In this document: positions 3,994 through 37,679 of the stretch, piece after piece
Position numbering within the stretch: the stretch's first letter is position 1
How the letters are laid out: the number at the start of each line of letters is the position of its first letter
Assembly: GCA_965227295.1 (NCBI GenBank)
Contig: OZ245742.1
Coordinates: forward strand, 3,712,001-3,776,000
Source of the DNA: Leptonemataceae bacterium
Lineage (GTDB): Bacteria > Spirochaetota > Leptospiria > Leptospirales > Leptonemataceae
Length of the DNA stretch: 64,000 nt
Reading direction: 5' to 3'
Program-made: the position numbers and the translations under genes
Notes under the pieces: model-generated
What the model saw: only the letters and a program-made list of their open reading frames with translations
What the model was told of the DNA's origin: nothing
Database searches by the model: none

Positions 3994-4000
3994 ATGCACA

Positions 4001-4489
4001 GGCTTAATGTACACTGGCCTTAACTTACACCACGATTCGGGGCGTAAGCGAACGAATAAACGTTTCCGGTAGTTCAAGAGCCGTGTTTCGCGGCGTTTGC
4101 CGTTAGACACATAAGGTAAGTTGCGCAATGCTGAAGGGACTTTTTTTGCTACGGCTGAGCGGGAGTTGTGGATTTTCGTTTTGCTAAGTTAGTCCGCCTC
4201 GACCCGGACGTCGGTTTGCGGCTCAGTTACCGTAGCGATTCTTACGGCGAAGACGCCGTTCCGGTGCGCGCCCCACATTTCCCCGGCATGACCTCCGTGG
4301 TCGCCTGGAACCAGTTGTACCCATAAAAGGCTTAATGTACACTGGCCTTTACTTACACCACGATTCGGGGCGTGCGCAAACTACCCGTGTTGCGCAATGC
4401 TGAAGGGACTTTTTTTGCTACGGCTGAGCGGGAGTTGTGGATTTTCGTTTTGTTAAGGATGCTGCATTCGACCCGGACGCGGGTTTGCG
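4001..4489. repeat. Tandem imperfect duplication of a non-coding module
   Basis: 45-nt block at 4001-4045 and 4329-4373 (1 mismatch); about 69-nt block at 4120-4188 and 4389-4457 (1 mismatch); TCGACCCGGACG at 4199-4210 and 4468-4479. Confidence 0.9.
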
Positions 4490-10592: not shown

Positions 10593-11708
10593 ATGGCACG
10601 TGAACTGAAACTCAATCGATTGACTCTCATCAACATCGTTCTCGCGACTCTTTTGATCGGCGCGTTTTTGAGTCCGATCATCTACGGCGGATTTCGAGAC
10701 GCCTTCGTGGACCGCTACGTTCCTTCGGCGGAGCCGTTGACGGCCTCCCAGCAACGTGCGGCCCTGGACCTCCAGCAAGCCTACATTAACATCTTCGAGA
10801 AGGCGTCGCCTTCGGTGGTGTTCATTAAGACGAATGTGCTCGTGCGTTCGGGCTGGTGGATCGACGTCTACCGGCAACAGGAACAGGCGGGCTCCGGTTT
10901 CATCATCGACGAGGACGGCTACATCGTCACGAACAACCATGTCGTCGCCGGCGCGCGCAAGATCGAAGTCATCTTCAACGATAAGACCGTGGCCCAGGCG
11001 CGCGTCGTCGGCCGGGACGAATCCAGTGACGTGGCCTTGTTGCAACTGACCGGCTCCAACCACGATCTGGTGCCGGCCGTTCTCGGCGACTCGGACAAGG
11101 TCGAAGTCGGCCAACTGGCCTTTGCGTTGGGCGCACCCTTCGGCCTCGACCGTACGTTCACTGTCGGTACCATCTCCGCGAGCGGACGGCAGATCGACAA
11201 CTCACGCTACTCGCGCATTCAAACGGACGCGTCCATCAACCCGGGCAACTCGGGCGGCCCGCTGATCAACGTCTTCGGTGAGGTCGTGGGCATCAATCAG
11301 TCCATCTTTTCCACCAGCGGCGGCAACATGGGCATCGGCTTTGCCATTCCCATCAACGAGGCCATGGAGGTTGTGGCGCAACTCAAGCAGGAGAAACGCG
11401 TCATCGGCAAACCTACGCTGGGCGTGAACGTCGGCGTGCCGGCGAATACCCTGCGCGAAGAACTGGGCGTCGGCGAACGTGAGGGCGTGGTGGTCATCAA
11501 CGTGTTGCCGGGCTCGGCCGCCGAGGATGCGGGCCTGAAAGAGTACGACTTCATCCTCGAAGTCAACGGCAACGGCGTCAAAGAACCGCAGGACCTCATC
11601 AAGGAAGTGCAGCAGGCCGGCGTGGGCGGCGAGCTCTCGCTGCGATTGTTGCGCAAGGGCCAGGAGATTACGGTCAAGGCCACGGTGGGCGAGACCGTTT
11701 CGAATTAG
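10593..11708 (+). CDS. htrA: HtrA/DegP-like serine protease with PDZ domain
   Basis: GSGFII, TNNHVV, DVALL and QTDASINPGNSGGPL motifs; C-terminal PDZ. Confidence 0.93.
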   Translation: MARELKLNRLTLINIVLATLLIGAFLSPIIYGGFRDAFVDRYVPSAEPLTASQQRAALDLQQAYINIFEKASPSVVFIKTNVLVRSGWWIDVYRQQEQAGSGFIIDEDGYIVTNNHVVAGARKIEVIFNDKTVAQARVVGRDESSDVALLQLTGSNHDLVPAVLGDSDKVEVGQLAFALGAPFGLDRTFTVGTISASGRQIDNSRYSRIQTDASINPGNSGGPLINVFGEVVGINQSIFSTSGGNMGIGFAIPINEAMEVVAQLKQEKRVIGKPTLGVNVGVPANTLREELGVGEREGVVVINVLPGSAAEDAGLKEYDFILEVNGNGVKEPQDLIKEVQQAGVGGELSLRLLRKGQEITVKATVGETVSN

Positions 11709-11711
11709 CGC

Positions 11712-12545
11712 ATGGCCTCTCACGTACTGGGCGTCGATGTCGGGAACTCCAACACCGTCTTCGGTCTCTTTGAAGATTCCGAGGACGGTTACACCATACT
11801 GCATCACTGGCGGACGGTAACGCGTCGGGACCGCACTTCGGACGAGCTCGGCATTTTTCTGCTGGGTTTCCTCGAAAGCATGCGCATCGATCCGGCGTCC
11901 ATCAGCGGGGCGATCTATTCTTCGGTGGTGCCGTCGTTTAATCCGATCGTCGAACGCATGGTGCGCGAATACTTTCATTCCGAAGCGCTGCGCGTGGATC
12001 ACGACAGCCCGCTGCCCATCGCCGTGCACTACGAACGTCCCTTTGAAATCGGCGCGGACCGCCTGGTAAATGCCAGCGCCGCTGTGGCCCTCTACGGCGA
12101 ACCGGGGGCGCCGGCTGCAAACGGCAACGGTTCGCCGGACCTCATCTGCGTGGACCTGGGAACGGCGACGACGTTCTGCGTGATCCACGATGCCGCCTTC
12201 GTCGGCGGCAGCATTGCCCCCGGACTCAAGCTGGCCATGGAGACCCTGAGCAGTCGGGCGGCCCAGCTTCCGCCGATCGAGTTTCGTCGGCCGCCGTCGG
12301 GGGTCGTCGGCGACTCCACGATTCATGCCCTGCAGGCTGGTTTCTTCTTCGGCTGGCGGGGCCTGCTCCGGGAGATTGTCGAGGAGGTACGTCGTTCGCA
12401 GCCGGAGCGCTCCTATCGCGTCGTCGCCACGGGGGGGCTGTCCACGACGTTTCACGCCGAGGCGCCGGGTCTCTTTGATTTCGTGGATCCGCTGCTGACC
12501 TTGAGAGGCCTCCAGATCATCTACCGATTCCGGAAAAACGGTTAA
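11712..12545 (+). CDS. coaX: Type III pantothenate kinase
   Basis: DVGNSNT, GADR, VDLGTATT, GGSIAPG and VATGG motifs. Confidence 0.95.
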   Translation: MASHVLGVDVGNSNTVFGLFEDSEDGYTILHHWRTVTRRDRTSDELGIFLLGFLESMRIDPASISGAIYSSVVPSFNPIVERMVREYFHSEALRVDHDSPLPIAVHYERPFEIGADRLVNASAAVALYGEPGAPAANGNGSPDLICVDLGTATTFCVIHDAAFVGGSIAPGLKLAMETLSSRAAQLPPIEFRRPPSGVVGDSTIHALQAGFFFGWRGLLREIVEEVRRSQPERSYRVVATGGLSTTFHAEAPGLFDFVDPLLTLRGLQIIYRFRKNG

Positions 12546-12593
12546 CACCTCGGGACGGCGCGAGATCCTGGCCGGAACTCGCTGGAGCCGCGT

Positions 12594-12983
12594 TTGACGT
12601 ATCATCTGGTAAACTGGGGCATGACCGTCGCCGTCCTTTTCTTCGGAGTGGGCTACGCCTATCGCAAAAAAGACCTGCGATTGCACCGTCTGTTTATGGC
12701 TTCCGGAGTAGGCCTGACGCTGCTCGGCGCGCTCGTGCTGCTGGTTTCGGTCTATGTCATTCACGGCGGCGATCGCGAAGCGGCGGGCTTTCTGCCGGCG
12801 GCGCCGAACTGGGTGATCCTCACGCATCGCATCATTGCCTCGGTGACGTTTGTGACCATGTTCGTGATGGTCTGGTCCGGGGCCACGCGCCGTCGTTCAT
12901 TGCATGTGACCCTGCATCGCTGGTTCATCCCGCTCTATCTGGTGGTCTACGTCTCCGGGTTGATTGTGTTTAAGAACAATTGA
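12594..12983 (+). CDS. Small 4-TM membrane protein (DUF420-like)
   Basis: Hydrophobic helices with conserved His (LHRLFM, THRI, LHVTLH). Confidence 0.65.
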   Translation: MTYHLVNWGMTVAVLFFGVGYAYRKKDLRLHRLFMASGVGLTLLGALVLLVSVYVIHGGDREAAGFLPAAPNWVILTHRIIASVTFVTMFVMVWSGATRRRSLHVTLHRWFIPLYLVVYVSGLIVFKNN

Positions 12984-23757: not shown

Positions 23758-23957
23758 GGGGCCATCCTGGGGTGGCCGGGGAAGGTGTCAACTACCGAGG
23801 CGCCGAGGTCGCCGGGGATGAAAGCCGGAGGGCCGGTGCAAGCCCCCTTTAAATGATGCGTGCTTTCTTTTTCTGCTTGTACTTTTTCCGGCACGCGACA
23901 TAATTGCTTCAGGCATTCCTCGGTTCGACCGATGTCGTTGATAGAGGAATTTCTCGC

Positions 23958-24395
23958 ATGGCTCTATTCGACAACACGTCCACAATGCGCTCGCTGCAAA
24001 TGCTCGAAAAGGGTATGGATGCGGCGATGACCCGGCGCAAGGTGCTCGCCAACAACATCGCCAACGTGGATGTGCCGCACTTCAAACGCTCCGAGGTCAT
24101 CTTCGAGTCACAGCTCGCGCGCGCCGTCGACCACGAACGCTCCGTGAAGGCCGATCCCCTGGCCATGCGGACGAACCATCCGGCGCACTTCGAAACCCGG
24201 CGTCACGAGGACTGGCGCGACGTGGGGCCGCAGATTCATCAGGACTACCTCACCAGCATGCGCAACGACGGGAACAACGTCGACATCGAAGACGAGGTGG
24301 CGAAGCTCACCCGCAATCAACTGCATTACTCGCTGATGGTGGATCGGGTGGGGAGCTCGTTTCGCCTGCTGAACAGCGTCACGCGACTCGCGTAA
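23958..24395 (+). CDS. flgB: Flagellar basal-body rod protein FlgB
   Basis: ANNIANVDVPHFKR and RNDGNNVDIEDE motifs. Confidence 0.97.
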   Translation: MALFDNTSTMRSLQMLEKGMDAAMTRRKVLANNIANVDVPHFKRSEVIFESQLARAVDHERSVKADPLAMRTNHPAHFETRRHEDWRDVGPQIHQDYLTSMRNDGNNVDIEDEVAKLTRNQLHYSLMVDRVGSSFRLLNSVTRLA

Positions 24396-24412: not shown

Positions 24413-24874
24413 ATGGGAATGTTCGACGTAGTAAACATCGCCGCCACCGGGCTCTCGGCCCAGCGCCTGCGCCTGGATGTAATTTCGAATAACATCGCCA
24501 ACGTCACCACGACGCGCAACGCCCAGGGTGACGGCCCCTTTCGCCGCGACCGCGTGGTCATGACGCCGGTAAACCTTCGTAACGTATGGCGCTCTCCGGT
24601 CTATCCGCGGGGCCTTGAAACGGGCATGGGCCGCGGCGTCAAAGTGGAGCGCATCGAAAAGGACATGAGCGATTTTCGCCTGGTCTATGATCCTTCGCAT
24701 CCGGACGCGATCAAGATCGGCCCGAAGCAGGGCTACGTGCAGATGCCCAATGTGAACATCGTCGAAGAGATGACCGATATGATCTCGGCCTCACGGTCCT
24801 ACGAGGCGAATGCCCAGGTGATCATGGGCGCCAAGCAGATGTTCAACAAGACCCTGGAACTGGGGCGCGGCTAG
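24413..24874 (+). CDS. flgC: Flagellar basal-body rod protein FlgC
   Basis: GLSAQRLRLDVISNNIAN, YDPSHPDA and PNVNIVEEMTDMISASRSYEAN motifs. Confidence 0.97.
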   Translation: MGMFDVVNIAATGLSAQRLRLDVISNNIANVTTTRNAQGDGPFRRDRVVMTPVNLRNVWRSPVYPRGLETGMGRGVKVERIEKDMSDFRLVYDPSHPDAIKIGPKQGYVQMPNVNIVEEMTDMISASRSYEANAQVIMGAKQMFNKTLELGRG

Positions 24875-24948: not shown

Positions 24949-25317
24949 ATGGAGATTTTCAGCACGAAAGGCGTCAGCTTTCCTAATGCCAATCCGAAGG
25001 TTTTCGGTGCGCAGGACCAGAATCACCTGGACATGCGGGTCAGCGATCCGCGGCACATGACGCCCGGTGTTCCGCCTGCCAACCCGGAGCGCGTACCGGA
25101 ATCTTTCGCTTCGATGCTCGGCGAATCCCTGCGCCGGGTCGAACAACTGGACGTGAACGCCAACAAACTCGCTGCCCAGGCCGTTTACGAGCCGGACTCG
25201 GTGGAGGCCCACGAGGTCGTGCTCGCCGCCGAGAAAGCGCGCTTCGCGATCAACTTCACGAAGACCATGGCGGACGGCTTTGTGCGCGCGTATCGTGACC
25301 TGACCAATCCGAGATAG
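24949..25317 (+). CDS. fliE: Flagellar hook-basal body protein FliE
   Basis: Follows flgC; SFASML, HEVVLAAEKA and VRAYRDL motifs. Confidence 0.85.
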   Translation: MEIFSTKGVSFPNANPKVFGAQDQNHLDMRVSDPRHMTPGVPPANPERVPESFASMLGESLRRVEQLDVNANKLAAQAVYEPDSVEAHEVVLAAEKARFAINFTKTMADGFVRAYRDLTNPR

Positions 25318-25558: not shown

Positions 25559-27262
25559 ATGCCCGATTTTCTCACAAACATTTTGAATCAGCTCCAGGAA
25601 CTCTGGGGGAAACTCGACAACACCAAGAAGATAACCCTCGGCGCCGTAATTGCCGCCGTGATTGTTGCCTTCACCGCCATGGCGTCGTTTTCGTCCAAGC
25701 CGGCGAAAGTTCCGCTGTACGAAGACCTGAACGCTCAGGATTTCGGTTCGATCACGTCGGCGCTGCAGGCGATGGGTTACTCCTACTCTGCCTCCGGCAC
25801 CACGGCGATTTACGTAGAATCGGACGAGCGCCAGGAGATCATCACCAAACTCGCCCAGGATTCCCTGATTCCCGCCGGGGTGGAGGGTTACGAGATCTTC
25901 GACATGTCGCGCTGGGACGAGACGACGTTCGATAAGAACGTCAAGTTGCATCGCGCCATCAAAGGTTCGCTGGAAACGATGTTAATGACGCTGGACTTCG
26001 TGAAACGCGCGAATGTGAATCTGGCGATTCCGGAACGGAACAACTTCCTTACGGACAGCGAACCGGTGAAGGCGTCCGTTGTTCTCTCGCTGCAACCCGG
26101 TATCGAAAAGGTCAGCCGCCGACAGGTGATGGGCATTAAGAACCTGATCTATCGTTCGGTGCCGCGCCTGGAGCGGGATAACATCAGCATCACCGACGAA
26201 GGCGGCAAAGAGTTCGTGGAACCGGATGAGATTGATGAAGCGCAGCGCGAACTCGATCTCGTCGAACGCAAAAAGGAGTTCGAGTATCGCGAAGAACGTC
26301 GCTGGCGTGAAGAGATTCGCGGCCGGTTGCACGAGTTCTATCCGGAAGATCGCATCTCCATCATTCGCGTCGCCTTTACCGTAAACTGGGACGAGGTCGA
26401 AGAGAAACAACATCTCGTGGCGCCCGTCGAGAAAACGCCGGAGAATGCCGAGACCCCGTATCCGGACCGCGAGATTATGGAGGACGGAACGATCACCGTT
26501 TCGCGCAACCGTCGTCAGGAACGTTTCCGCGGCAACGGCTTCACCCCCGGCGGACCCACCGGTACCGAACAACAACTGCCGCCGGGTTATCGCGATCTCG
26601 ACTACCAGCGTTCCGAGTACGGAAACAACGACGTCATCGAAAACTTCGATTATAACCGCATCGAAAAAGAGATTACGCGTCAGCCCTGGGAAGAGCGTTC
26701 GCGCTCTATCGCGGTAGCCGTGGACGGCACCTGGACCCGGGGGATTCCGTATCAGAAAGAAGACGGCTCCTGGGCCTACGAACGCACCTACGAACCGCCG
26801 GCGCAGGAGGAACTGCAAACCCTGGAACGTTTGCTGAAGGCGTCCCTGTTGTTCAAAGGCGCGCGCGGCGACCAGATCGAAGTGCGTCACTTGAAGAAAG
26901 ACCGCTCGGCCGAGTTTGCCGCGGAAGATGAAGCACTGACCCGTGAGCGTTTTATCCGCACTCTGTTGATCGTCTCGGCGGTGGCTCTCGCGGCGATGAT
27001 CTTCGTCTACTTGCTGTATCGTGCCATCAAGAAGGAGATCGCCCGGCGGCGGCGTCTGCGCGAAGAAGAACTCGCGGCACAGCAACAGCTCATGCGCGAA
27101 GCGGCCCTGCGGGTCGCCGACGAGGGCGCGGCGGAAGTCGAACTCTCCGTGGACGAAAAGGCCCGGCGCGAGATGCTCGAAAACGCCATGAATCTGGCCC
27201 GGGAAAAACCCGATCAGGTGGCGAAGCTGATCCGCACCTGGTTGTCCTCGGACGAAACGTAA
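25559..27262 (+). CDS. fliF: Flagellar M-ring protein FliF
   Basis: Two TMs; GYEIFD, A.VNLAIP, ASVVL and RGDQIEV motifs; C-terminus PDQVAKLIRTWL. Confidence 0.96.
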   Translation: MPDFLTNILNQLQELWGKLDNTKKITLGAVIAAVIVAFTAMASFSSKPAKVPLYEDLNAQDFGSITSALQAMGYSYSASGTTAIYVESDERQEIITKLAQDSLIPAGVEGYEIFDMSRWDETTFDKNVKLHRAIKGSLETMLMTLDFVKRANVNLAIPERNNFLTDSEPVKASVVLSLQPGIEKVSRRQVMGIKNLIYRSVPRLERDNISITDEGGKEFVEPDEIDEAQRELDLVERKKEFEYREERRWREEIRGRLHEFYPEDRISIIRVAFTVNWDEVEEKQHLVAPVEKTPENAETPYPDREIMEDGTITVSRNRRQERFRGNGFTPGGPTGTEQQLPPGYRDLDYQRSEYGNNDVIENFDYNRIEKEITRQPWEERSRSIAVAVDGTWTRGIPYQKEDGSWAYERTYEPPAQEELQTLERLLKASLLFKGARGDQIEVRHLKKDRSAEFAAEDEALTRERFIRTLLIVSAVALAAMIFVYLLYRAIKKEIARRRRLREEELAAQQQLMREAALRVADEGAAEVELSVDEKARREMLENAMNLAREKPDQVAKLIRTWLSSDET

Positions 27263-27375
27263 ACTGTTAGCGGCCGCCGGTTAAAGAAATGCCACGGCGG
27301 CCGCCTTTGTTCTGATCCTCGTTCTGACGCCATTGGTCTTCGGCCGGCACAGTACGTAGGGAATGTGAGATCCTG

Positions 27376-27400
27376 GGGGGCAGCGATGCCCCCTTTTTTT
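27376..27400 (+). terminator. Intrinsic terminator downstream of fliF
   Basis: GGGGGCA-GCGA-TGCCCCC followed by T7. Confidence 0.8.
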
Positions 27401-27429
27401 CGTTGGGCGTCTTTGCGATCATACGAGTC

Positions 27430-28749
27430 ATGAACGTCCAGGAACAAATTCAGTTCGCCCGTTTCTTCGTAATCGAAGCGGCCGCAGAGATCGGAGCCGA
27501 CGTTCTGGCTTATCTGAATCGGGACGAAACCAAAGATCTAAAGCGTTGGTTGATGGATCGAACTCCGCCTTATCCGGAATTCAGGGAAGGTCTGCTCATC
27601 TGGTGGAACAAAGTGGCGCTGGAGGAATCGAACGCGATCGATCTTACCGCCGCGCTCGATCCGGAACTTCGACGGCGATTGTTTCCAGACACAAAGCCTG
27701 CGCTGCGCGAGCGACGAGACGATGGTCTCGCCGAACTCGGCCCATTGATTCAACAGCGTAACGCTCATCATCCCGGCGAACCAATTGAGGAACTGAGCGT
27801 CGACGAACGTGCGCGGCGGGAAATGTTTGAAAACTTTCTAGCGGCGTTTGTAGAGCAATCGGGGGCGGCGCTGGAACGTCTCGATCGGGCCGCGGCCGCG
27901 ATGAGCGCGGAATACCTGGAGAGGCAGGAGCGTCGCTTGCCCGCGCAGGACCTGCGCCTGGAGTTCTTGCGGGGAGTGGCCGCGCGTCTGGGCGTGGAGC
28001 AGACCGAACAACAGCGAAGTTTTGTTCGGGGATTGCATGATCGTGAAGTGCGACTTGTATTCGCGTACTTGAACCATTGCGATATCAGGCCAGCATCCAG
28101 GGGACTCTTGCGTTCCGGCGAGCGAAGCAAGGATGCCGTCCAAAGATTGCGCCGGGTGTATCGTCGCCTGTTCGCGGGGAGGCGCGCTTGCAGGCCGGTG
28201 CGGGAATGGGAGATAGGTTCGGAAGATGAGTATCGGCCGCTTGCGTTTGGCACGGGTAAGGACGGTGCTTTATACACGCTGGAAATTTTGCATGATGATC
28301 GGGCTGCTGTGAAGGGTATGATCGAGCGTTTGTCGCCCGATGGTGAGCGGGTCAGGGTTGTGCATATCGCCGGGACAGCGGAGAGGTATGCACAGGACTT
28401 ACGGGTTACGGAAGACGCCCTTCATATTCTATTTGGCCCGCGCGGATATCTGGATCACGGTGATGACGATGCGGAACCGGTATACTCGATCGCGCGACTG
28501 AGTCATGATGGCTCCTTCCTGGATGAGAAAATCCTTTCGGAGGATGAGAACATTCACTCTGGCATGGATCGGCTTGTGCCGGATGAGCTACAGTTTTATC
28601 GATCGTTCACGCCAATGCCCGAGCACTTGCATCGCCTGATGTTTCGCGACACCGACGGGCGCCGATTTAGCTTTGAGCGTTTTGTTGTGCGGGGCGATTT
28701 TCTGGCGGCAAGAATCGGCGGACGCATCCTGATCTACGCCCTGAAGTGA
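27430..28749 (+). CDS. Hypothetical protein: FliG-N-like N-terminus, FliF-C-like peptide and a beta-rich C-terminal region
   Basis: N-terminus aligns by eye with FliG residues ~10-65; ELSVDERARREMFEN is 13/15 identical to the local FliF peptide ELSVDEKARREMLEN. Confidence 0.7.
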   Translation: MNVQEQIQFARFFVIEAAAEIGADVLAYLNRDETKDLKRWLMDRTPPYPEFREGLLIWWNKVALEESNAIDLTAALDPELRRRLFPDTKPALRERRDDGLAELGPLIQQRNAHHPGEPIEELSVDERARREMFENFLAAFVEQSGAALERLDRAAAAMSAEYLERQERRLPAQDLRLEFLRGVAARLGVEQTEQQRSFVRGLHDREVRLVFAYLNHCDIRPASRGLLRSGERSKDAVQRLRRVYRRLFAGRRACRPVREWEIGSEDEYRPLAFGTGKDGALYTLEILHDDRAAVKGMIERLSPDGERVRVVHIAGTAERYAQDLRVTEDALHILFGPRGYLDHGDDDAEPVYSIARLSHDGSFLDEKILSEDENIHSGMDRLVPDELQFYRSFTPMPEHLHRLMFRDTDGRRFSFERFVVRGDFLAARIGGRILIYALK

Positions 28750-28757
28750 TGTATGCG

Positions 28758-29225
28758 TCATATCTCTTCCGGTTCCATGTACTCCGCATACGCATGCAGT
28801 CGATCTTCCAGCGGCCCCAGCAAATGCCGCCGCGCGTCTTCGATTTCTTCCGCGGTCCATTCGTTATCGCCGGCGTTCTGGATCTCATCGCGTTTGTTCA
28901 TCGATACGTTGCGCAGGATGATCTCACGTAGTTCCGGTGCCGCACCGAAACACGCCGCCGCGATTGTTCGGCCGTCCAGAGGGCGTAACAAATCCTGCAA
29001 TGTTCGTGCGTGAAGTTTTTGCAAGGCCGCAAAGGGTAAGCGAAAGAAAGTTAGCGATTTTGCGAGCGGCGCCGCGCTTTCCAGGAGACCCGCGAATTCC
29101 CGGGCGAGTTCCGGAGACAGCCGGCGCATTACATCATGGAGCACATCCGCCGCGGGTCGCGGGGAGGGCGGCTCGCCGAGATTTAACAGGGCTTCGATTT
29201 CTTCGGGGGAGAGGAATTCGGTCAC
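28758..29225 (-). CDS. Small protein: FliM/FliY-type N-terminal CheY-binding motif fused to a FliG C-terminal-like domain
   Basis: Begins MTEFLSPEEIEALL; the remainder aligns by eye with FliG-C (DPELAEE/SPELARE, IQRVLREVD/LQDLLRPLD, KIFKNMS/IILRNVS, DVED/EIED). Confidence 0.72.
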   Translation of the reverse strand: MTEFLSPEEIEALLNLGEPPSPRPAADVLHDVMRRLSPELAREFAGLLESAAPLAKSLTFFRLPFAALQKLHARTLQDLLRPLDGRTIAAACFGAAPELREIILRNVSMNKRDEIQNAGDNEWTAEEIEDARRHLLGPLEDRLHAYAEYMEPEEI

Positions 29226-29689
29226 GTATCACGTTTCCGCTGAATTTCCTGAAGCACGGCCACGTCCCACTGGTCGATCTCGCGCGATGTGGACTTGCTG
29301 CGAATCAAAGAGGCGATTCCCATGTACGGAATCATTACACCGTCGACTTCCTTTACAGCGCGATCCGCAAGTGCTTCTTCGTAGGTGACGTCCCATGCGC
29401 TGATCGCAACATCCACTTCAATTTCATCTGCGATCTTCAGGACAATGTGCTCTACGATGTCCTGCGCCAGGATCGGCTCCGGCAATTCCGGGAAAAGCTT
29501 TTCGAGCGCGGCCACCGTGCGCTTTAGATTTTCCGGGGTGTTTCGAATGAGAATATCGTAATCGTTCGTGGCCCGGACGTGGCCCTGGAGAGCGCAGGCA
29601 TAGGCGCCGGTGAACATATACTCTACTTCGTGGCTATTGAAAACAGTGGCCACGTCCGAGAGTGTGCGCCACGGATCATTCGGCGCCAT
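29222..29689 (-). CDS. Nucleotidyltransferase (AbiEii/DUF6036-like Pol-beta fold)
   Basis: GAYACALQGHVRATNDYDILI motif; LIRSK...R.ID..D motif. Confidence 0.8.
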   Translation of the reverse strand: MAPNDPWRTLSDVATVFNSHEVEYMFTGAYACALQGHVRATNDYDILIRNTPENLKRTVAALEKLFPELPEPILAQDIVEHIVLKIADEIEVDVAISAWDVTYEEALADRAVKEVDGVMIPYMGIASLIRSKSTSREIDQWDVAVLQEIQRKRDT

Positions 29690-29695
29690 GACGCC

Positions 29696-29884
29696 TCACA
29701 ACTCCCGGGCCGCGCGGGTGCGGACGAATTCGTCGTGTTCTTCCCAGGTGCGGAACTTGTAGACTCCGCGCGGCTTTTTGTACGGGCGGAGCCGTTCCAT
29801 CTCGGCGACCAAACGATGCATGCGCCGGTAGTTTTCGATGACGTTGTTTGGATCGGGGGCGTTGGGACCTGTAATCCGCTTCAC
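29696..29884 (-). CDS. Small protein upstream of the nucleotidyltransferase (putative TA partner)
   Basis: 62 aa with PRGVYKFRTWEE; 6-bp gap to the NTase gene. Confidence 0.6.
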   Translation of the reverse strand: MKRITGPNAPDPNNVIENYRRMHRLVAEMERLRPYKKPRGVYKFRTWEEHDEFVRTRAAREL

Positions 29885-30442
29885 GCATCTATCAGATGCG
29901 CGGAAATTTCGGTGTCAAGCTGAATCGGCGGGGCCCGCGTGTTGCGGATTGACAGGATTTGTAGTGCCGGCACACTTTTCGGCAGGATTTCCCCGGAATG
30001 GATGACGCGATGTTTGATCTCACTGCGGTACTGGTAAGCAGCCTGGCTGCGCTGACTTGCTTCCGGGTTTTCCGCGTGATCCATCGGATCCGGCGCCTGG
30101 TTCCTGTGGCCGTGCGCTGGTTCCGGCCGTCTTCGCTCTACGCGCGTCGGCATCGCTAATCGACCTGGTTCATCTTCCTCGGACTATCGCTGGCGTTGGC
30201 CGCGGCGGTGTTTTTGGTCGGTCTCGCATTGGAATGGTTCGTCGGTGATCGTAAGATTGTCGAGCGGCACTTCTGGACCTTCCTGCTCGCCGTGAGCGCG
30301 ACGCCGATTGCCTGGTATGCCTGGTTTGTGCGGGACCGCAACCGCTCAGAAGAGCTGAAGAACGACAGGTTCAAGAACATTCGCGAGAGTTTCTACAAGC
30401 TTCAGGAATGGGCGGTCAGTGACAACGAGGGGCAGGTGACCA

Positions 30443-32426
30443 GTGCGCCGGGCAAAGCCCGATGTTTCTGATAAGGTGAAAGTCCATATGAAGTAAAGTT
30501 TAGCGAACAACTTCTACCGAGTGTTGCGTGGAAGCGGGTAACCGCCACACGAAGCGTACACAGGGAAGCATGCAGGCCGTAGGGGAGTCCACACTCCCGG
30601 AAGCTGTTGAGCCTCGTAAAATGCCATAGATGCAGACGGTGACATCATTGGTCAGATGGAAACCAGCACAAAGGAATCGTTTTAGCGAGATTCTGGAGGT
30701 CTGTCGGGGTCGCTTGAGCGCGGCATGTATGCAGAGAAACATCGTGGAACCCGGGAGACCCCGTTGGTTCCTTCGACGATAGCGAAGGTAATTCTGACCG
30801 AATGAACAAGGAAGAATGATGATCAACGGGGAGTCGGATCAGCCCATAGTACTCAGAGGGCGGGAGAGCCGTCCACAGAATCGAATGAAACTCGAATGGA
30901 GTTTCGACGGGTTCGGTCTTCGCGTGCGATGCGCGATGATCGGGGAAGGGGCTGACGAAAGTACGCAGCTCGCAGAGTCAACATCAGCCGGACGGCAGGA
31001 TCGGAACAACTGATGCAAACCTCACTACGGGCAATAGCAAATAAAGCGAGGAGGAGTAAGAAACATCTGTTTCGTAATCTGTATGGGATGCTCAACCAGA
31101 TGAATCTCGAAGATTCGTTCGCAGGAATGAATCGCCGGGCGGCTCCGGGCGTGGACCGTGAAACGTTTCGCGACTACGAAGCGAACCTTACGGAAAATGT
31201 CGGGGATCTGGTGGAACGCTTAAAACAGAAACGATACCGAACAAAACTGATTCGCAGGGTCTTTATCCCGAAAGCGGACGGAAAACAACGTCCGCTTGGA
31301 TTGCCGGCCCTCGAAGACAAACTGGTACAAACATGCGCGACGCGTATCCTTGAAGCGATCTATGAGCAAGACTTCCTGTCGTGTTCGTATGGTTATCGGC
31401 CGAACACCGGTCCGCGTGAGGCTTCGAAGACTCTGAGTTCAACTTTGAGTCCGGGGAAGCTCGGCTGGATTGTGGAAGCCGACATCAAGGGTTTCTTCGA
31501 CAACATTGACCATGATTGGTTGATGCGAATGCTGGAGCAACGAATCGATGATCGGGCCTTTCTCGGTCTGATTCGCAAGTGGCTGAAAGCAGGCGTGCTG
31601 GAGGTAAACGGTCAGGTCTCGCGCCCGACCGCTGGTACTCCTCAAGGCGGCGTGATCAGTCCGGTTCTGGCGAACGTCTATCTTCATTACGTACTGGACC
31701 TCTGGTTCGAGAAAGTGGTGAAGAAGCACTGCAAGAGACCGGCCTATATGTGTCGATACGCGGACGATTTTGTTTGCGCCTTTGAATCCAAAGACGATGC
31801 GCTGAAATTCTATGCGACGCTTGGAAAACGTTTGCGAAAGTTTGGTCTGGAACTGGCGCCGGAAAAGTCAGGAGTGAAAAGTTTCGAGCGCCCGGGCTTC
31901 CGCGCGAAGTTCAATACCGGGCGTGAGGCGTTCGTATTTCTAGGCTTTGAATACCGCTGGGCTCGTTCTCGAAAGGGGTTCTGGTGGGTTCCGCGTCGCA
32001 CCGCTCCAAAGCGATTGCATGCGTCGATCCAGAATGTGAAGCAGTGGATTAAAGCGAATCGGCATCTACCCATGCGCAGGTTCTTCAATCTTCTGAACTC
32101 CCGGCTGCGTGGATACTATAACTATTATGGCGTCCAATGCAACTACAAGAGTATACGAAGCTTCTACTATCAGGTGGAAATGAATCTGTACAAGTGGCTC
32201 AATCGGCGCAGTCAGCGCCGGAGTCTGGACTGGCAGGGGCTGAGGGATCTGATGGCGCACTACCGGATCGAAAAACCGCGCATCATGGAACGACCAGTAT
32301 CTCAGTTGCGACTTACTCTGAATTGACTTTATGTGGAAGCGAGTGCTTTCGAAGAGCCCGGTGCGAGAATACCGCACGCCGGGATCTGTGCGGGGGCGGC
32401 CGGGCAACCGGCCGTTCTACCGCGAC
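30443..32426 (+). mobile_element. Group II intron (IIB-like), 1984 nt
   Basis: 5' GTGCG at 30443; domain V GAGCCCGGTGCGAGAATACCGCACGCCGGGATC near 32354; domain VI with a bulged A, ending ...CGCGAC; EBS1 TGGTCA (30649-30654) complementary to IBS1 TGACCA (30437-30442). Confidence 0.92.
31013..32326 (+). CDS. ltrA: Group II intron reverse transcriptase/maturase (no HNH endonuclease)
   Basis: APGVD, IPKADGKQRPLG, SYGYRP, DIKGFFDNI, GTPQGGVISP and RYADDF motifs; X domain LRGYYNYY; the protein ends without an En domain. Confidence 0.96.
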   Translation: MQTSLRAIANKARRSKKHLFRNLYGMLNQMNLEDSFAGMNRRAAPGVDRETFRDYEANLTENVGDLVERLKQKRYRTKLIRRVFIPKADGKQRPLGLPALEDKLVQTCATRILEAIYEQDFLSCSYGYRPNTGPREASKTLSSTLSPGKLGWIVEADIKGFFDNIDHDWLMRMLEQRIDDRAFLGLIRKWLKAGVLEVNGQVSRPTAGTPQGGVISPVLANVYLHYVLDLWFEKVVKKHCKRPAYMCRYADDFVCAFESKDDALKFYATLGKRLRKFGLELAPEKSGVKSFERPGFRAKFNTGREAFVFLGFEYRWARSRKGFWWVPRRTAPKRLHASIQNVKQWIKANRHLPMRRFFNLLNSRLRGYYNYYGVQCNYKSIRSFYYQVEMNLYKWLNRRSQRRSLDWQGLRDLMAHYRIEKPRIMERPVSQLRLTLN

Positions 32427-32836
32427 CGGCGCTCTTTCAACTCCGCGACTACCTGGTGATGGATCGGGGGCTGATTCCGGAGGATCTGAAAGAATATCGC
32501 AGGCAGTTCGCGAAGATGGCGCGGGAGTTTTTTGCGGTGATTCTGAAAGATCGGGCGATTTATGATCGGAATTATCGTTTGTGGGAGGAGGCGAATGGGA
32601 TCGGGGTCGGGAAACGTGCGGGGAGCGGCGCGTCCGGGAACCCGGAAGGCAACGATCTTTCGATCGTCCACATGGATAAGATCAGCGAGGCGTCGGTTTC
32701 GCTTTCGCATGAGGATCATTATCTGCTCCAGGCGTTTCGCGGGCAGCGGCTGGTGGACGTGCCGAAGAGCGCGCCGTTTCGGGCGATGGAGCGCATTGTC
32801 CGGGAGAACGGCGTGGCGATCGGCGATTTGCGCGAG

Positions 32837-32876
32837 GCGGAGTTGCAGCACGCGGAGTTGCAGCACGCGGAGTTGC
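32837..32876 (+). repeat. 15-bp tandem repeat encoding pentapeptide units
   Basis: GCGGAGTTGCAGCAC twice, plus a partial third copy. Confidence 0.85.
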
Positions 32877-33001
32877 CGGAAGCGCGGCTGGGCGTTCGCG
32901 TAGCGACGCGGACGACACCCGCCCCGGCCGATACACGCAAAAATCATCGTCCCACAAAATATTGATTGACCATGCGTATTTTTTGATGCAATCATTCATG
33001 A

Positions 33002-35149
33002 ATGTTCCGGCAAGAAACACTTTTGATACTATGTTGTCTGTTCCTCCAGTTCTTCTTTATGAATTGCGGCGGGGTCGGTATTTTCGATCCTCTGGAAGCC
33101 CGTCCTGTGGGCGACCTCCATTCATCCACATCGAGGGACTTGAAGCCCGCGTCGCCTAAAGCCGTAAGTAAGGACAGGCTCACTGACGTCCCCTATTCGT
33201 CAGTGGTCCGAATGGAATTTGCTTTTGGAGCCGGAGAGTACAGTTGTTCCGGTACTTTGATCGAAGGTGCCGACGGAGATACCTATCTCCTGACAGCCAC
33301 TCACTGCCTTTTTGATCCCCATTCCAAGAACTGGCTGAATGAAGTGGTCATCTGTGTCGCCGCTTATAGCCGGACCGGGTGCAAAGGGGGGAGGTTCGTT
33401 CGGCCGATTGAGTACGTTTCTATTTTTACGAATGCTCAGCGTTCCGAAGATACCTATCCAGTGCCTCCAAACCACCGTCCCGAAATGGAAGTGTACGATC
33501 AGGCCATTGTTAAACTCAAGCAATCTCCGCAAGCCCGGGCACTGCGGCCTCTATTCGGGCTGAACCTGGACCAACCACAGATTCGAATGTTAGGTTATCC
33601 CGATGGCGATGATTTTCATGCCGGGACCATGTACGAGATTCAAACCAACCTGGTTTTTGCCATCGATGAAGAAAGGCAGGCGCTCCTCAGTCAACCCGCC
33701 TTCGCCGAGGGGGCGAGTGGCGGCCCCTGGATCTATCGTGATTCGAAGGGTGCTCATCGAGTGGTCGGGTTGCTCAGCAGCGGTATTCCCGGCGAAGGCG
33801 AGACCTACGAAATTTCCGGCATCTTCGGTGATAATCAAGAGCTTCTCTATGAATGCGCTACCGGAGGCCAGGGCGCGCCGTGTAAGCCGCAGCGCAGAGG
33901 CGATGGTAAGATTACACAGATGAACGATTACACGATCCAGGAGACCGGCTATTCTGTGGGAGGATCCATGATCTACCTCCAAAACGGCAGCATGGCTGTT
34001 CTTGCGGTGCGCCGGGCTCAACGGGCCTGCACGGGAAAATCCTACTCAGGATCCGGAGTCGAGCTTTCTTTTTTGCGCATCGACGATATGCCGGCGACAA
34101 TGCAGCGGCAATGCTTTGATCTCGGCAGGTGGTCCGGCCGGGATGCAAGCGATATGTTAGTCGCCAGGCTGGAAGCCGCGGACGCTTCGGAGAACTATTA
34201 CCTGATCACTGCCAACGGGACTAACGACAATCGAATCCGCCTGCACACCTTTGCCATACAGGATACGGGCCTGGTTCCTCTGGAAGAGAAGATCTGGGAT
34301 GCCGGTGAGATAGACAAGAACGTCCGTCTCCTGCAGACCGCGAACGGTTTCGCCTTCTTACGCCGCCGAAAAGGTAAGTTGTACCTGAAATCCTGGGATC
34401 TTTCATTGGAAGGGAAACTCAAGGAAGGAAAACCGAAAGCTCTCACAGGACCGAAAACAACAGCCTTCGACGCGATAGCTCTGACGGCTCCGGCACCGCC
34501 GGAAATCGGATCCTCTTTCATCAAACCTCAGGTCCTGGTGGCCGCCGTCATTGGTGGAAAGATAGAACTCTTGAGTTACTTGCTCCATGATGGGACCTGG
34601 GTCAATGGTCCTCAGTTGAAGACCGGCATTGTGGCGGAGGAGGCCCCACGGCTCGTGCAGATGGACAACGGTATGATCGCCCTCGGCTTCCTCGGGAAAG
34701 ACAGACAGGCTGCCTTTGAACTCCTTCGGGTTGACTATCGTACCTGGAATGCCGGGCACTATTTTCTCGAACGCGTCGAGGACAGTCGAACCAATGTCGT
34801 GCGTGGTTCCAAAGTGCTACAGGGGCCGGGTCTGGCGGACCTCGGCAACGGCATCCTCGGCGTTGCCGTGGCCTTGACAGACCGCACACTGCTGAACACG
34901 TTTGCCATACCTGCCCACTCGGTTCCGAGCCCTCGGAAATTAGGGGAGGCGAACATGCCGGCCTGGAACGAGTCGAACATTACGCCGCTGTACTTCGGTT
35001 CTCCTGCTCGCCCGGAGGCTACGACGATTGCTGTGGTCTATTTCGATAAGAGCAGCGGCTCCACCGACTTTCGCCTGCGTACCCTGTCGGTAGAGGGCGC
35101 GTCCGGTGTGCGTATGGATACCATCAGCTACCATTACATGTACCGCTGA
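33002..35149 (+). CDS. Trypsin-like (S1) serine protease lipoprotein with a large C-terminal beta-rich domain
   Basis: Lipoprotein-like signal (FFFMNC); CSGTLI, LTATHC, YDQAIVKL and GASGGPW motifs; lower GC than the backbone. Confidence 0.8.
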   Translation: MFRQETLLILCCLFLQFFFMNCGGVGIFDPLEARPVGDLHSSTSRDLKPASPKAVSKDRLTDVPYSSVVRMEFAFGAGEYSCSGTLIEGADGDTYLLTATHCLFDPHSKNWLNEVVICVAAYSRTGCKGGRFVRPIEYVSIFTNAQRSEDTYPVPPNHRPEMEVYDQAIVKLKQSPQARALRPLFGLNLDQPQIRMLGYPDGDDFHAGTMYEIQTNLVFAIDEERQALLSQPAFAEGASGGPWIYRDSKGAHRVVGLLSSGIPGEGETYEISGIFGDNQELLYECATGGQGAPCKPQRRGDGKITQMNDYTIQETGYSVGGSMIYLQNGSMAVLAVRRAQRACTGKSYSGSGVELSFLRIDDMPATMQRQCFDLGRWSGRDASDMLVARLEAADASENYYLITANGTNDNRIRLHTFAIQDTGLVPLEEKIWDAGEIDKNVRLLQTANGFAFLRRRKGKLYLKSWDLSLEGKLKEGKPKALTGPKTTAFDAIALTAPAPPEIGSSFIKPQVLVAAVIGGKIELLSYLLHDGTWVNGPQLKTGIVAEEAPRLVQMDNGMIALGFLGKDRQAAFELLRVDYRTWNAGHYFLERVEDSRTNVVRGSKVLQGPGLADLGNGILGVAVALTDRTLLNTFAIPAHSVPSPRKLGEANMPAWNESNITPLYFGSPARPEATTIAVVYFDKSSGSTDFRLRTLSVEGASGVRMDTISYHYMYR

Positions 35150-35289
35150 GGCGCGGCCCATCATCCAGCATGATTTTTCATCTTGCGCGCCGCGATCCAC
35201 CCTGATAATCTCGGCTGCACGGGAAATTCTGGACTCCCGCCGCGTTTCTGCCGATACTAAACGAAGCGGCAATTCGCCTGCATCCGCCT

Positions 35290-36306
35290 ATGCTCCAGTC
35301 GAAAAAACAGCAGCTCTCCGGTCGCCAGAAGGCGGCGATCTTCCTCGTGACCCTCGGTCCGGAGATCGCTTCCGAGATCTTCAAGCACCTGCGCGAGGAC
35401 GAGGTCGAGACGCTCACTTTCGAAATGGCGCGGATCGATAAGATCACGCCGGAGGACAAAGAGTCGGTCCTGGTTGAGTTCAACGAACTCATGATGGCCC
35501 AGGAGTTCATCACGACGGGCGGTATCGATTACGCCCGGGAAGTTCTGGAACGCGCCCTCGGTACTCAGAAGGCGATCGACATCATCAACCGCCTCACGTC
35601 GTCGCTCCAGGTCCGGCCGTTCGACTTCATTCGCCGCACGGACCCGCAGCATCTTTTGAACTTTATCCAGAACGAGCACCCGCAAACCATCGCTCTGATT
35701 CTCTGTTACCTCGAACCCCAGAAGGCCGCGCTCATTCTTTCGTCGTTGCCGCACCAGATCCAGGCCGACGTCGCCAAGCGCATCGCCACGATGGAACGCG
35801 TTTCGCCGGACGTTCTGCGCGAAGTCGAACGCGTTCTTGAACGCAAGCTCTCCACGCTCGCTTCGGAAGATTATACGACGGCGGGTGGTATCGACGCGGT
35901 GGTCGAGGTTCTGAACCTCGTAGACCGCGGCACGGAAAAGACCATCATCGAGGCGCTGGAAGAGGAAGACCCGGAACTCGCCGAAGAAATCAAAAAGAAG
36001 ATGTTTGTCTTCGAAGACATCGTCCTGCTCGACGACCGTGCCATTCAGCGGGTCCTCCGCGAGGTCGACAACCAGGAACTCGCGAAGGCCCTCAAGTCGG
36101 TCGACGCCGAGGTCCAGGAAAAGATCTTCAAGAACATGTCCAAACGCGCGGCCGCGTTGCTCCGCGAGGACATGGACTTCATGGGTCCGGTGCGTTTGAA
36201 AGACGTCGAGGACTGCCAGCAGAAGATTGTGAACATCATCCGCAAGCTGGAAGATGCCGGCGAGATCGTCGTCGCGCGTCACGGGGAAGAAGAGCTGGTG
36301 GTTTGA
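35290..36306 (+). CDS. fliG: Flagellar motor switch protein FliG
   Basis: GRQKAAI, GGIDYA, EHPQ, GGIDAV, MFVFED, NMSKRAA and GPVRLKDVE motifs. Confidence 0.98.
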   Translation: MLQSKKQQLSGRQKAAIFLVTLGPEIASEIFKHLREDEVETLTFEMARIDKITPEDKESVLVEFNELMMAQEFITTGGIDYAREVLERALGTQKAIDIINRLTSSLQVRPFDFIRRTDPQHLLNFIQNEHPQTIALILCYLEPQKAALILSSLPHQIQADVAKRIATMERVSPDVLREVERVLERKLSTLASEDYTTAGGIDAVVEVLNLVDRGTEKTIIEALEEEDPELAEEIKKKMFVFEDIVLLDDRAIQRVLREVDNQELAKALKSVDAEVQEKIFKNMSKRAAALLREDMDFMGPVRLKDVEDCQQKIVNIIRKLEDAGEIVVARHGEEELVV

Positions 36307-36337
36307 TTCGGCGTTTGCCCGGTCATTCGAAGCACAA

Positions 36338-36538
36338 ATGGCTACGATCGAAGAAATCAAGGAAGCCATAGCGGCGCTTCCGCAATCAGAACAGCAGCGT
36401 CTCCGCGATTGGTTCGTCGAGCGAGACAGTGAGTCCTGGGATCGCAAGATCGAAGATGATGCCGCGTCCGGCCGACTGGACGCTCTTGCGGACGCGGCAT
36501 TGCGCGATCACGAGACCGGACGTTCGACCAAACTGTGA
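36338..36538 (+). CDS. Small putative antitoxin (type usually upstream of a RelE/ParE-like toxin)
   Basis: MATIEEIKEAIAALP...WDRKIEDDAASGRLDALA..AL pattern. Confidence 0.65.
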   Translation: MATIEEIKEAIAALPQSEQQRLRDWFVERDSESWDRKIEDDAASGRLDALADAALRDHETGRSTKL

Positions 36539-36596
36539 GACAGTTCATATCTCGGGGTTAAGACGGGGCATTTGACGCAGAAGACTGCGGATCACC

Positions 36597-37679
36597 ATGT
36601 ACCGATACAACCCAGACAAAAACGAACTAACCGAAGTCGAAGCAACGACGTTCGCCGAGAACGGCCTGGTGGAACGAGGCCACATCGAAGAGTGGGTCCG
36701 CAAGAATCCGACGATACTTGACGAAAGCCTGCTCATCATCGCCCAGGAGTACGACGGCTTCGAGAAAGAAGGCCGCCTCGATCTCCTCGCCGTGCATTCA
36801 GAGGGCGATCTCGTCGTCATCGAACTCAAGCGGGACGCATCCGGCTCGCAGGTCGATTTCCAGGCGATGAAGTACTGCTCGTACTGTGCCACGCTGACGC
36901 CGAAGGATATCGTCGAGATCTATCAGGAGTACATCAAAAAATTCGACCTGAAACAGAACGCCCTCGAAACGCTGATGGCGCATGTCGAGGCGGAATCGGA
37001 GGAGAGCCTGAACGAAGTCCTGAATCGTTCGCAGAAAATCATCCTGGCCGGGCGACAGTTCGACGATCGCATCCTGTCGGTGGCCGCCTGGCTATGCCGG
37101 AACAATATCGATATCCGCTGCATCGAGATCCGGCCGTACAAACACGGCTCCGGCGACATACTCATCGATATCAATCAGCTTATCCCGACTCGCACGCTCG
37201 AAGACTTTGCCGTTCGCCGGGCGACGCCGTCCGGGCGGAGCGGGGATATCCAGCAGCCGCCGGAGATTCTTGCGTTCTTTCGTTCGATAGTGACGATGCT
37301 GCGGGATAAGGGCTACCGGGCGACGCCGTCGAATCGCAGACCGCAGTGTGCGGTGGCGTCCGGTGTGTCGGGCTCCATCCTGTTCAAGCTGTACTATCGC
37401 AAGCGGCGAAAGCTTTTCGAGTTCGAGGTCGAATGCAAGGACGGCAGCCTGAAAGAAAAACTCTTTGCGGCGTATGACAAACACAGCAAAGAGATTGCGG
37501 ATCTTACGGGCTTGCAGTTCGAGAAGAGCGACGGTCAGTTTAACGCAGGCTGGTCCAGGCTGACGGCCGCTCGTGATGCGGAAGAGCGGCGGACGCTGGA
37601 TGATCATCTGGAACCGATCGGTGCAAGCTTTCTCGCCATGGTGGAGAAGTTCCGGGAGATTTTTCAAGACGAGCTTTGA
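36597..37679 (+). CDS. NucS/DUF91-like PD-(D/E)xK endonuclease domain protein
   Basis: ERGHIEEW, IIAQE, RLDLLA...LVVIELKR and QAMKY motifs. Confidence 0.8.
   Translation: MYRYNPDKNELTEVEATTFAENGLVERGHIEEWVRKNPTILDESLLIIAQEYDGFEKEGRLDLLAVHSEGDLVVIELKRDASGSQVDFQAMKYCSYCATLTPKDIVEIYQEYIKKFDLKQNALETLMAHVEAESEESLNEVLNRSQKIILAGRQFDDRILSVAAWLCRNNIDIRCIEIRPYKHGSGDILIDINQLIPTRTLEDFAVRRATPSGRSGDIQQPPEILAFFRSIVTMLRDKGYRATPSNRRPQCAVASGVSGSILFKLYYRKRRKLFEFEVECKDGSLKEKLFAAYDKHSKEIADLTGLQFEKSDGQFNAGWSRLTAARDAEERRTLDDHLEPIGASFLAMVEKFREIFQDEL

Follow-up and report, generated by a model that had tools for sequence, protein, structure and literature searches.

A predicted, rare protein joining an EIDAL-type peptide to a diverged FliG C-terminal domain in an accessory island between fliF and fliG of a Leptonemataceae genome

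Results

Two convergent open reading frames begin an island between fliF and fliG

We analysed a 64,000-nt stretch of a Leptonemataceae genome (GenBank assembly GCA_965227295.1, contig OZ245742.1, positions 3,712,001 to 3,776,000 of the forward strand), hereafter the window, in which the flagellar genes fliF and fliG are separated by accessory DNA carrying two unusual open reading frames (ORFs), ORF A and ORF B. The last conserved gene before this island is fliF (25559-27262, plus strand), encoding the MS-ring protein (TIGR00206, 324 bits; Pfam YscJ_FliF and YscJ_FliF_C), whose product shared 72.6% identity with FliF of a related locus (L002). On the far side lies a canonical, intact fliG with N, M and C domains (35290-36306, plus strand; TIGR00207, 493.7 bits), whose product was 94% identical to FliG of loci L001 and L002, from metagenome-assembled genomes (MAGs) labelled Leptonemataceae and Spirochaetaceae. 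The interval between the two genes forms an accessory block of 8,027 nt (27263-35289). Its first two genes are ORF A, an orphan of 439 aa counted from the ATG in the ORF list (27430-28749, plus strand), and ORF B, which encodes 155 aa comprising an EIDAL-type peptide, a proline-rich linker and a diverged FliG_C domain (28758-29225, minus strand); at least six more features follow. ORF A and ORF B are convergent, with stop codons 8 nt apart, and a terminator-like hairpin with a T run (27375-27394, plus strand; 8 pairs in a consensus scan, 6 of them G-C) stands between fliF and ORF A. A preliminary description of this DNA had placed two convergent ORFs directly after fliF and its terminator, and an intact fliG at 35290. 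The coordinates, the 8-nt spacing and the hairpin all agree with it, and ORF B is an extra component beside fliG.

The interval was compared with 80 fliG loci from species-representative genomes. A fliF match was found upstream of fliG on the same strand in 64/80 loci, and where this match ran to the end of FliF (51 loci) the gap between the two genes was 5-468 nt. The closest relatives with a fliF match had gaps of 468 nt (L002) and 150 nt (L003). The 13 other loci, which included Clostridia/Bacillota and one MAG labelled Betaproteobacteria, gave apparent gaps of 345-1071 nt that are uninformative because the fliF match stops early. The DNA upstream of fliG in L001, L027 and L028 was too short to judge fliF, and no fliF occurred in the 2.1 kb upstream of fliG in L004. 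Apart from the loci L005-L016 described below, fliF abuts fliG in most spirochete and Firmicute loci. Alignment at the DNA level resolved flgC-fliF and fliG as conserved blocks, and was uninformative for the intergenic DNA of L001-L003. None of the 80 loci carried ORF A, ORF B, the nucleotidyltransferase-like gene, the small gene, the reverse transcriptase or the trypsin-like gene of the island, or the genes that follow fliG (tblastn, E ≤ 1e-3). The G+C content at third codon positions (GC3) ranged from 0.59 to 0.76 in island genes versus 0.73-0.79 in flagellar genes, and exceeded 0.65 within the island only in a 62-aa gene (0.76) and in the ORF beginning at 32333 (0.71). No direct or inverted repeats of at least 8 nt were found flanking the island, and none of the island ORFs scanned with Pfam had an integrase domain.

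Together with the gene order upstream, where flgB (23904-24395), flgC (24413-24874) and fliE (24949-25317) precede fliF in the gene-order list, these comparisons suggest that a flgB-flgC-fliE-fliF-fliG operon was split by a lineage-specific accessory island. Given the hairpin after fliF and the 8-kb separation, fliG transcription must start within the island.

ORF B combines a switch-type peptide with a FliG_C domain

Residues 62-136 of ORF B (28818-29042, minus strand) matched FliG_C (PF01706) at 34.0 bits, above the Pfam cut-off of 23.3. Searching PDB sequences with phmmer returned Thermotoga maritima FliG (6.1e-07), with residues 31-136 aligned to ARM-C and the C-terminal part of that protein, and in a reciprocal check a two-sequence ORF B profile matched the FliG C-domain in 79 of the 80 loci. 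The AlphaFold2 (AF2) model of ORF B had a predicted local distance difference test (pLDDT) score of 77-92 over residues 61-140. When this model was compared with the PDB using Foldseek, the 16 best matches listed were all FliG, among them 1qc7_B (template modelling (TM) score 0.83, root-mean-square deviation 1.9 Å over 86 columns) and 8ucs_H (TM score 0.79), and viral structures compared in the same way yielded no match at E ≤ 0.001.

The N-terminus of ORF B (MTEFLSPEEIEALLNLGEPP) carries an EIDAL-type motif, LSPEEIEALL, at residues 5-14 (29184-29213, minus strand). As a control, the motif was counted in six-frame translations of the 80 loci and the window (2.94 million residues). LS..EI[DE]ALL occurred 10 times: nine matches began 4-37 residues past the preceding stop in ORFs downstream of fliG, and the tenth was ORF B. 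A looser pattern gave 30 matches, every one within 44 residues of the ORF start, and the four motif-bearing ORFs tested with Pfam were all FliM or FliY. Alignment of ORF B with E. coli FliM and the FliM/FliY proteins of the loci showed that the invariant positions (L5, S6, E9, I10, L13 and L14) are all kept, and BLASTP matched ORF B to a FliY N-terminus (E 2e-05). The FliM-N-type motif and FliG-C-like domain that the preliminary description had assigned to ORF B are both borne out by the census and alignments on the one hand and the Pfam score and fold matches on the other. Passages of PMC6946799 report that the EIDAL motif binds CheY, and passages of a preprint (bioRxiv 10.1101/2022.04.21.489128) report that it is both required and sufficient for binding FlhG.

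The remaining switch domains were missing from ORF B, which had no Pfam match (E ≤ 1) to FliG_N, FliG_M, FliM (PF02154), CheC-like or SpoA (PF01052) and scored 17.1 bits, below the cut-off of 226.7, on the full-length FliG model TIGR00207. In a MAFFT alignment, K264, R281, D288, D289 and R297 of E. coli FliG fell on F93, N110, N117, A118 and T124 of ORF B, respectively; K264 and R297 are charged stator-contact positions as well. The alternative HMMER alignment kept at most two of the five charges (the D/E pair) and required a four-residue helix deletion. The stator contacts FliG at R281 and D288-D289 in E. coli numbering, according to passages of PMC12505986. The charges at the stator contact are thus mostly lost, and the 'output module' of FliG is not preserved.

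A single homologue of ORF B was found, by word-index search only: P0003, a protein of 124 aa on a 3.7-kb contig with 72% identity. Identity between the two was 82% over residues 1-95, spanning the EIDAL motif, the linker and ARM-C, versus 38% over residues 96-121, and P0003 ends earlier. This difference suggests that the docking peptide and the domain's first half are under selection. The motif is exactly N-terminal in both proteins. Peptide patterns taken from ORF B matched genome contigs 115 times, with 0 matches confirmed, and neither ORF A nor ORF B had a tblastn match in the phage and plasmid collections. The literature searched, which comprised listings and some passages, held no description of an EIDAL motif fused to FliG_C. 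On these comparisons of sequence and predicted fold, ORF B is a genuine, rare protein and a new variant among FliG_C-only proteins, to which an EIDAL peptide has been fused.

ORF A carries part of a FliF tail

Residues 121-137 of ORF A (27790-27840, plus strand) copy helix 1 of the FliF tail, whose pattern is ELS[VIL][DE]ExARxx[ML]xEN, with 13/17 residues identical to FliF 528-544. On a profile of 51 FliF tails, ORF A scored 9.8 bits (E 0.035 over 598 window segments), and the next segment scored 3.1 bits. This score was reached by none of 5,000 shuffles (maximum 8.0 bits) and by 64 of 7,468 natural segments, 59 of which exceeded 30 bits while the other five lay directly upstream of fliG, in the position of FliF. 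BLASTP of ORF A against all window segments also returned FliF only (E 0.023). At the DNA level, 34/51 bases of the stretch are identical and the codons differ for six of the 13 identical residues, which argues against recent duplication and for selection on the peptide. The helix was probably derived from the 3' end of a fliF gene.

The preliminary description had assigned a FliF-C peptide to ORF A, and this stands in part. The 13/17 identical residues go beyond chance, but the match covers only positions 18-37 of the 60 in the profile and the second tail helix, P[ED]DVAxLIRTWL, which is the best-conserved part of the 50 FliF tails listed, is absent. The stretch is also internal in ORF A rather than C-terminal, and ORF A has no ring-building domains.

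The FliG-N-like start proposed for the same protein was not confirmed, the likeness being weak. For the stretch in question (residues 8-63; 27451-27618, plus strand), Pfam gave no match to FliG_N (PF14842) at E ≤ 1, and our own FliG-N profile gave a non-significant 4.1 bits (E 1.9; next segment 3.6 bits). Using hhalign with 26 FliG N-termini, the probability was 9.4% (E 0.0034), with residues 8-63 aligned in register to positions 13-68. The profile score was equalled by 10 of 5,000 shuffles and by 35 natural non-FliG segments, and lies near chance level since roughly 600 segments were compared.

No protein other than ORF A itself was retrieved, whether from 5.8 billion clusters by word-index search or from 1.84 billion representative proteins by phmmer. 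No match was found in Pfam, NCBIfam, PDB sequences, PADLOC or PHROGs, and the ESM Atlas gave no usable one. An AF2 model from the single sequence, made with no alignment and therefore weak evidence, had a pLDDT of 36.6. By our own arithmetic from base composition, the chance of 439 stop-free codons is ~1e-7. The codon score of ORF A, 0.14 per codon, was the highest of its six frames and comparable to those of the reverse transcriptase (0.14) and trypsin-like (0.15) genes of the island, but lay below those of 28/29 reference genes (0.22-0.60). ORF A is probably a real, or recently real, gene. A gene antisense to ORF A was considered and rejected, as the codon-aligned frame yields only separate ORFs of 77 and 101 aa and has a lower score. 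Many confident genes in the window lack a Shine-Dalgarno sequence, so inspection for an upstream ribosome-binding site was uninformative.

ORF B belongs to an operon with a nucleotidyltransferase-like gene

ORF B is preceded on the minus strand by a small gene of 62 aa (29696-29884), the first of its operon, and by a gene that we call nucleotidyltransferase-like from plasmid homologues carrying that annotation (29222-29689). The latter begins 6 nt after the 62-aa gene, and its TGA is overlapped by the GTG start of ORF B by 4 nt (GTGA). From this layout, ORF B is the predicted last gene of a three-gene minus-strand operon, translationally coupled to the small-protein/nucleotidyltransferase pair. 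The 4-nt overlap, the 6-nt spacing and the convergence with ORF A together indicate that ORF B is co-transcribed with a plasmid-type module, and not with ORF A.

The nucleotidyltransferase-like protein had tblastn matches to plasmid genes annotated 'nucleotidyltransferase', but for the window protein itself the assignment is weak (Pfam E 0.03; no PDB match below E 0.16). A homologue with 29.6% identity over 90% of the query lies on the Azospira IncP conjugative plasmid pAZI09, where it also follows a small gene (the pair at L083:2250-2992). The small genes of the window and the plasmid have in common a PxGxYxFxxxEE stretch, and the plasmid homologue of the nucleotidyltransferase-like protein had sub-threshold matches to DUF6036 and AbiEii. 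Downstream of the pair, the plasmid carries a gene that does not resemble FliG_C, and PADLOC and PHROGs returned nothing for ORF B, the nucleotidyltransferase-like gene or the small gene. The pair may represent an undescribed two-gene module.

Other genes in and around the island

Beyond this operon, the island contains a group II intron (30479-32426, plus strand; Rfam RF02005, 130.7 bits at 30479-30720), whose 3' part matched RF00029 at 33.9 bits (32352-32426), under the gathering score of 40, and which encodes a reverse transcriptase/maturase (31013-32326, plus strand; Pfam RVT_1 and GIIM). The intron begins 18 nt past a second terminator-like hairpin (30449-30461). Bacterial class C introns usually land just after a terminator hairpin. 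The start of the next ORF (32333-32965) overlaps the intron end, its first ~100 nt being intron domain V/VI, and three tandem 15-nt copies at 32825-32884 give it a repeated AELQH-like peptide. The last island gene encodes a trypsin-like protein of 715 aa (33002-35149, plus strand) and ends 140 nt before fliG. It scores slightly under the Pfam thresholds for both Trypsin_2 (27.4 bits; threshold 27.6) and Trypsin (19.7 bits; threshold 20.6), and PADLOC gave a weak LmuA match (1.9e-05). The trypsin-like domain is N-terminal and followed by a long C-terminal part, and the protein is a singleton at 90% identity.

Downstream of fliG (36254-37679 region), a 94-aa ORF overlaps the fliG end, although an internal start at ~36338 is likelier, and is followed by the gene of a 360-aa protein matching the PADLOC candidate defence family PDC-S11 (5.8e-122). 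The relatives L003 and L001, unlike the window, have housekeeping genes after fliG. Accessory genes thus occur 3' of fliG as well, leaving fliG with accessory DNA on both sides. The window also encodes the FlaA sheath protein (Pfam FlaA). Long open frames run antisense to real genes on the minus strand at 25982-27085, 35257-36447, 1073-2116, 2725-4128 and 11202-12827, of which those opposite fliF and fliG span 367 and 396 aa. We regard them as shadows because codon scores are far higher in the frames facing them, and with such shadows in a genome of 57% G+C, ORF length alone is weak evidence here.

Discussion

ORF B as a FliG-C mimic in a split operon

We lean, with modest confidence, towards the reading that the flagellar operon was split and that ORF B is a FliG-C mimic that generates no torque, with ORF A as an orphan neighbour and no demonstrated system formed by the two. 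ORF B would be addressed by phospho-CheY or FlhG through its EIDAL peptide. Since FliG-N, FliG-M and the charges for stator contact are missing, it would be unable to assemble a rotor or to generate torque. The ARM-C part of the FliG_C domain appears to have been conserved while the torque-generating part degenerated, and the product may titrate the switch signal or redirect it, as a FliG-C mimic that is either soluble or docked at the periphery. Here and below, we infer what ORF B binds and does from its predicted domains.

Several observations weigh against this reading. Twelve loci (L005-L016), comprising Leptospira, Leptospiraceae/Leptospirales and one Spirochaetia MAG, have no fliF within 10 kb upstream of the best fliG match. 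Adjacency of fliF and fliG is therefore not universal in the order, and the inference of an insertion rests on L002 and L003. The AF2 model of ORF B leans to the FliG fold because 31 of the 33 rows in its alignment are FliG C-termini. Its motif deviates from the consensus at two positions (Q7 to P and D11 to E), and the 64-kb window yielded no gene for CheY or FlhG. On the sequences retrieved, the ORF B family has two known members, of which the homologue is the shorter. ORF A, for its part, ranks first of the 598 window segments on both the FliF-C and the FliG-N profile, and three rotor-derived pieces adjoining one another at the fliF-fliG junction are a coincidence that the reading leaves unexplained.

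Alternative explanations

We consider it unlikely, although this is the alternative that survives best, that both ORFs are non-functional relics or chance chimeras of flagellar fragments, taken up and shuffled while accessory DNA built up at the junction. A setting that includes an intron and a plasmid-type module would suit such an origin, and so would the orphan status of ORF A, a codon score (0.14) beneath the range of 28/29 reference genes and the lack of a confident fold, the last being weak evidence from a single sequence. The fast divergence of the C-terminal third of ORF B (38% identity), together with a homologue that stops at 124 aa, points the same way. However, a 439-codon open frame is very unlikely to persist unselected (~1e-7), and the frame of ORF A is the best of six, level with the Pfam-supported reverse transcriptase and trypsin-like genes. 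Use of other codons for six of the 13 identical FliF-like residues is as expected under selection on the peptide, and residues 1-95 of ORF B are 82% identical to a homologue that has the motif at its N-terminus too.

The preliminary description had gone further, and proposed that the two genes form a rotor-modulating pair in which ORF A (a FliG-N-like domain plus a FliF helix) serves as anchor or decoy and ORF B as a CheY-addressed FliG-C, so that together they modulate or clutch the motor. The FliF-tail helix of ORF A does exceed chance, ORF B does carry EIDAL and FliG_C, and the genes abut at the fliF-fliG junction; on the FliG-N profile, ORF A is the top non-FliG segment of the window, aligned in register, with a score equalled by 10/5,000 shuffles. 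We nonetheless find such a pair distinctly improbable. The genes are convergent and ORF B belongs to a separate operon, neither occurs in the 80 loci, ORF A has no homologue and ORF B has one, and 35 natural non-FliG segments equal the FliG-N score of ORF A. The proposal that the two ORFs re-package the anchoring, input and output modules of the switch survives for the input peptide and the FliG-C domain of ORF B, which indeed stand apart from FliG-N, FliG-M and the FliM core. It fails for output, as most stator-contact charges of ORF B are lost, and for anchoring, as ORF A has no P[ED]DVAxLIRTWL helix and its FliG-N score lies in the noise. Measured against what the preliminary description itself would count as refutation, ORF A falls on having no homologues elsewhere, whereas ORF B stands on both profile and fold similarity to FliG. 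The preliminary observation is thus partly confirmed, fully so for ORF B and for ORF A only in the partial FliF helix, while a two-gene rotor-mimic system is unproven, being supported neither by operon structure nor by co-occurrence nor by relatives of ORF A.

Bolder still, and in our judgement very improbable, is the idea that the island, whether mobile or accessory, reached the fliF-fliG junction with a kit of two rotor-mimicking proteins, made from three pieces of the switch, that brakes, uncouples or re-programmes the periplasmic flagellar motors. ORF A would then combine a FliF-tail helix with a FliG-N-like domain that has diverged very far, occupying FliF tails or FliG-N grooves or satisfying itself, and ORF B a FliG-C addressed by CheY-P or FlhG that makes no torque. 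If true, this would be motor control of a kind not described so far, and would show as well that soluble regulators can arise by recombining rotor modules.

Least probable of all is that ORF B is the third part of a small-protein/nucleotidyltransferase module, perhaps toxin-antitoxin-like or defence-like, with EIDAL/FliG_C as its sensor or targeting domain, for although the three genes form a tight operon with a 4-nt overlap, the pair recurs on an IncP plasmid with a homologue weakly matching DUF6036 and AbiEii, and a PDC-S11 candidate defence gene lies just past fliG, PADLOC matched none of the three, the pair on the Azospira plasmid is not followed by a FliG_C-like gene and the window protein is weakly assigned as a nucleotidyltransferase (Pfam E 0.03; nothing in PDB below E 0.16).

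Significance

Should ORF B, as a FliG-C mimic, bind phospho-CheY or FlhG, it would be a natural graft of the switch input peptide onto the rotor output domain. It would then offer a compact handle on FliG-C packing in the C-ring and on the bias of two-pole motors in spirochetes, and would provide the first function for the widespread, unstudied short FliG_C-only proteins. The locus also indicates that a break in a core flagellar operon is compatible with an intact fliG and a terminator behind fliF, which raises the question of how fliG is now expressed and kept in proportion to fliF. If the ORFs are inert, the island would be an ordinary hotspot for accessory DNA.

Comparison with known systems

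The closest counterparts of ORF B in size class are the stand-alone FliG_C-only proteins, which likewise have a single FliG_C domain. Their Atlas clusters are 155-167 aa long with PF01706 in 94-100% of members, and were compared with ORF B by features, not by sequences, so that the feature search score of 0.82 is a lead only. In contrast to ORF B, their descriptions show no EIDAL motif, and word-index searches revealed no close homology between them and ORF B. A Leptospira interrogans gene annotated as encoding a protein that contains a FliG C-terminal domain is listed as slightly upregulated in PMC13066512.

FliM and FliY carry the same motif at the same extreme N-terminal position as ORF B, the nearest being of the FliY type that continues with GEP. 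In these proteins, however, the peptide is followed by FliM or CheC-like plus SpoA domains, whereas in ORF B it is followed by FliG_C. An extra FliG is also known from Borrelia burgdorferi, whose FliG1 and FliG2 are full-length FliG paralogues. Unlike these, ORF B consists of the C-terminal domain only, plus the EIDAL peptide, but the two cases are alike in that a spirochete has an extra FliG-type protein beside the canonical one. This paralogy is discussed in relation to asymmetric pole behaviour in passages of PMC7225975.

An extra FliG_C ORF beside fliG occurred once in the 80 loci, in a Treponemataceae MAG (L050:11011-12669), where an accessory protein with four FliG_C stretches adjoins fliG (Pfam 8.9e-69). 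It differs from ORF B in its length (552 aa), its four tandem domains, the lack of EIDAL at its start and its position 15 nt downstream of fliG on the same strand. Finally, the FliF C-terminal tail co-folds with FliG-N, as described in passages of PMC6946799. ORF A matches the first helix of this tail (13/17 residues) but holds the stretch internally, lacks both the second helix and the ring-building domains.

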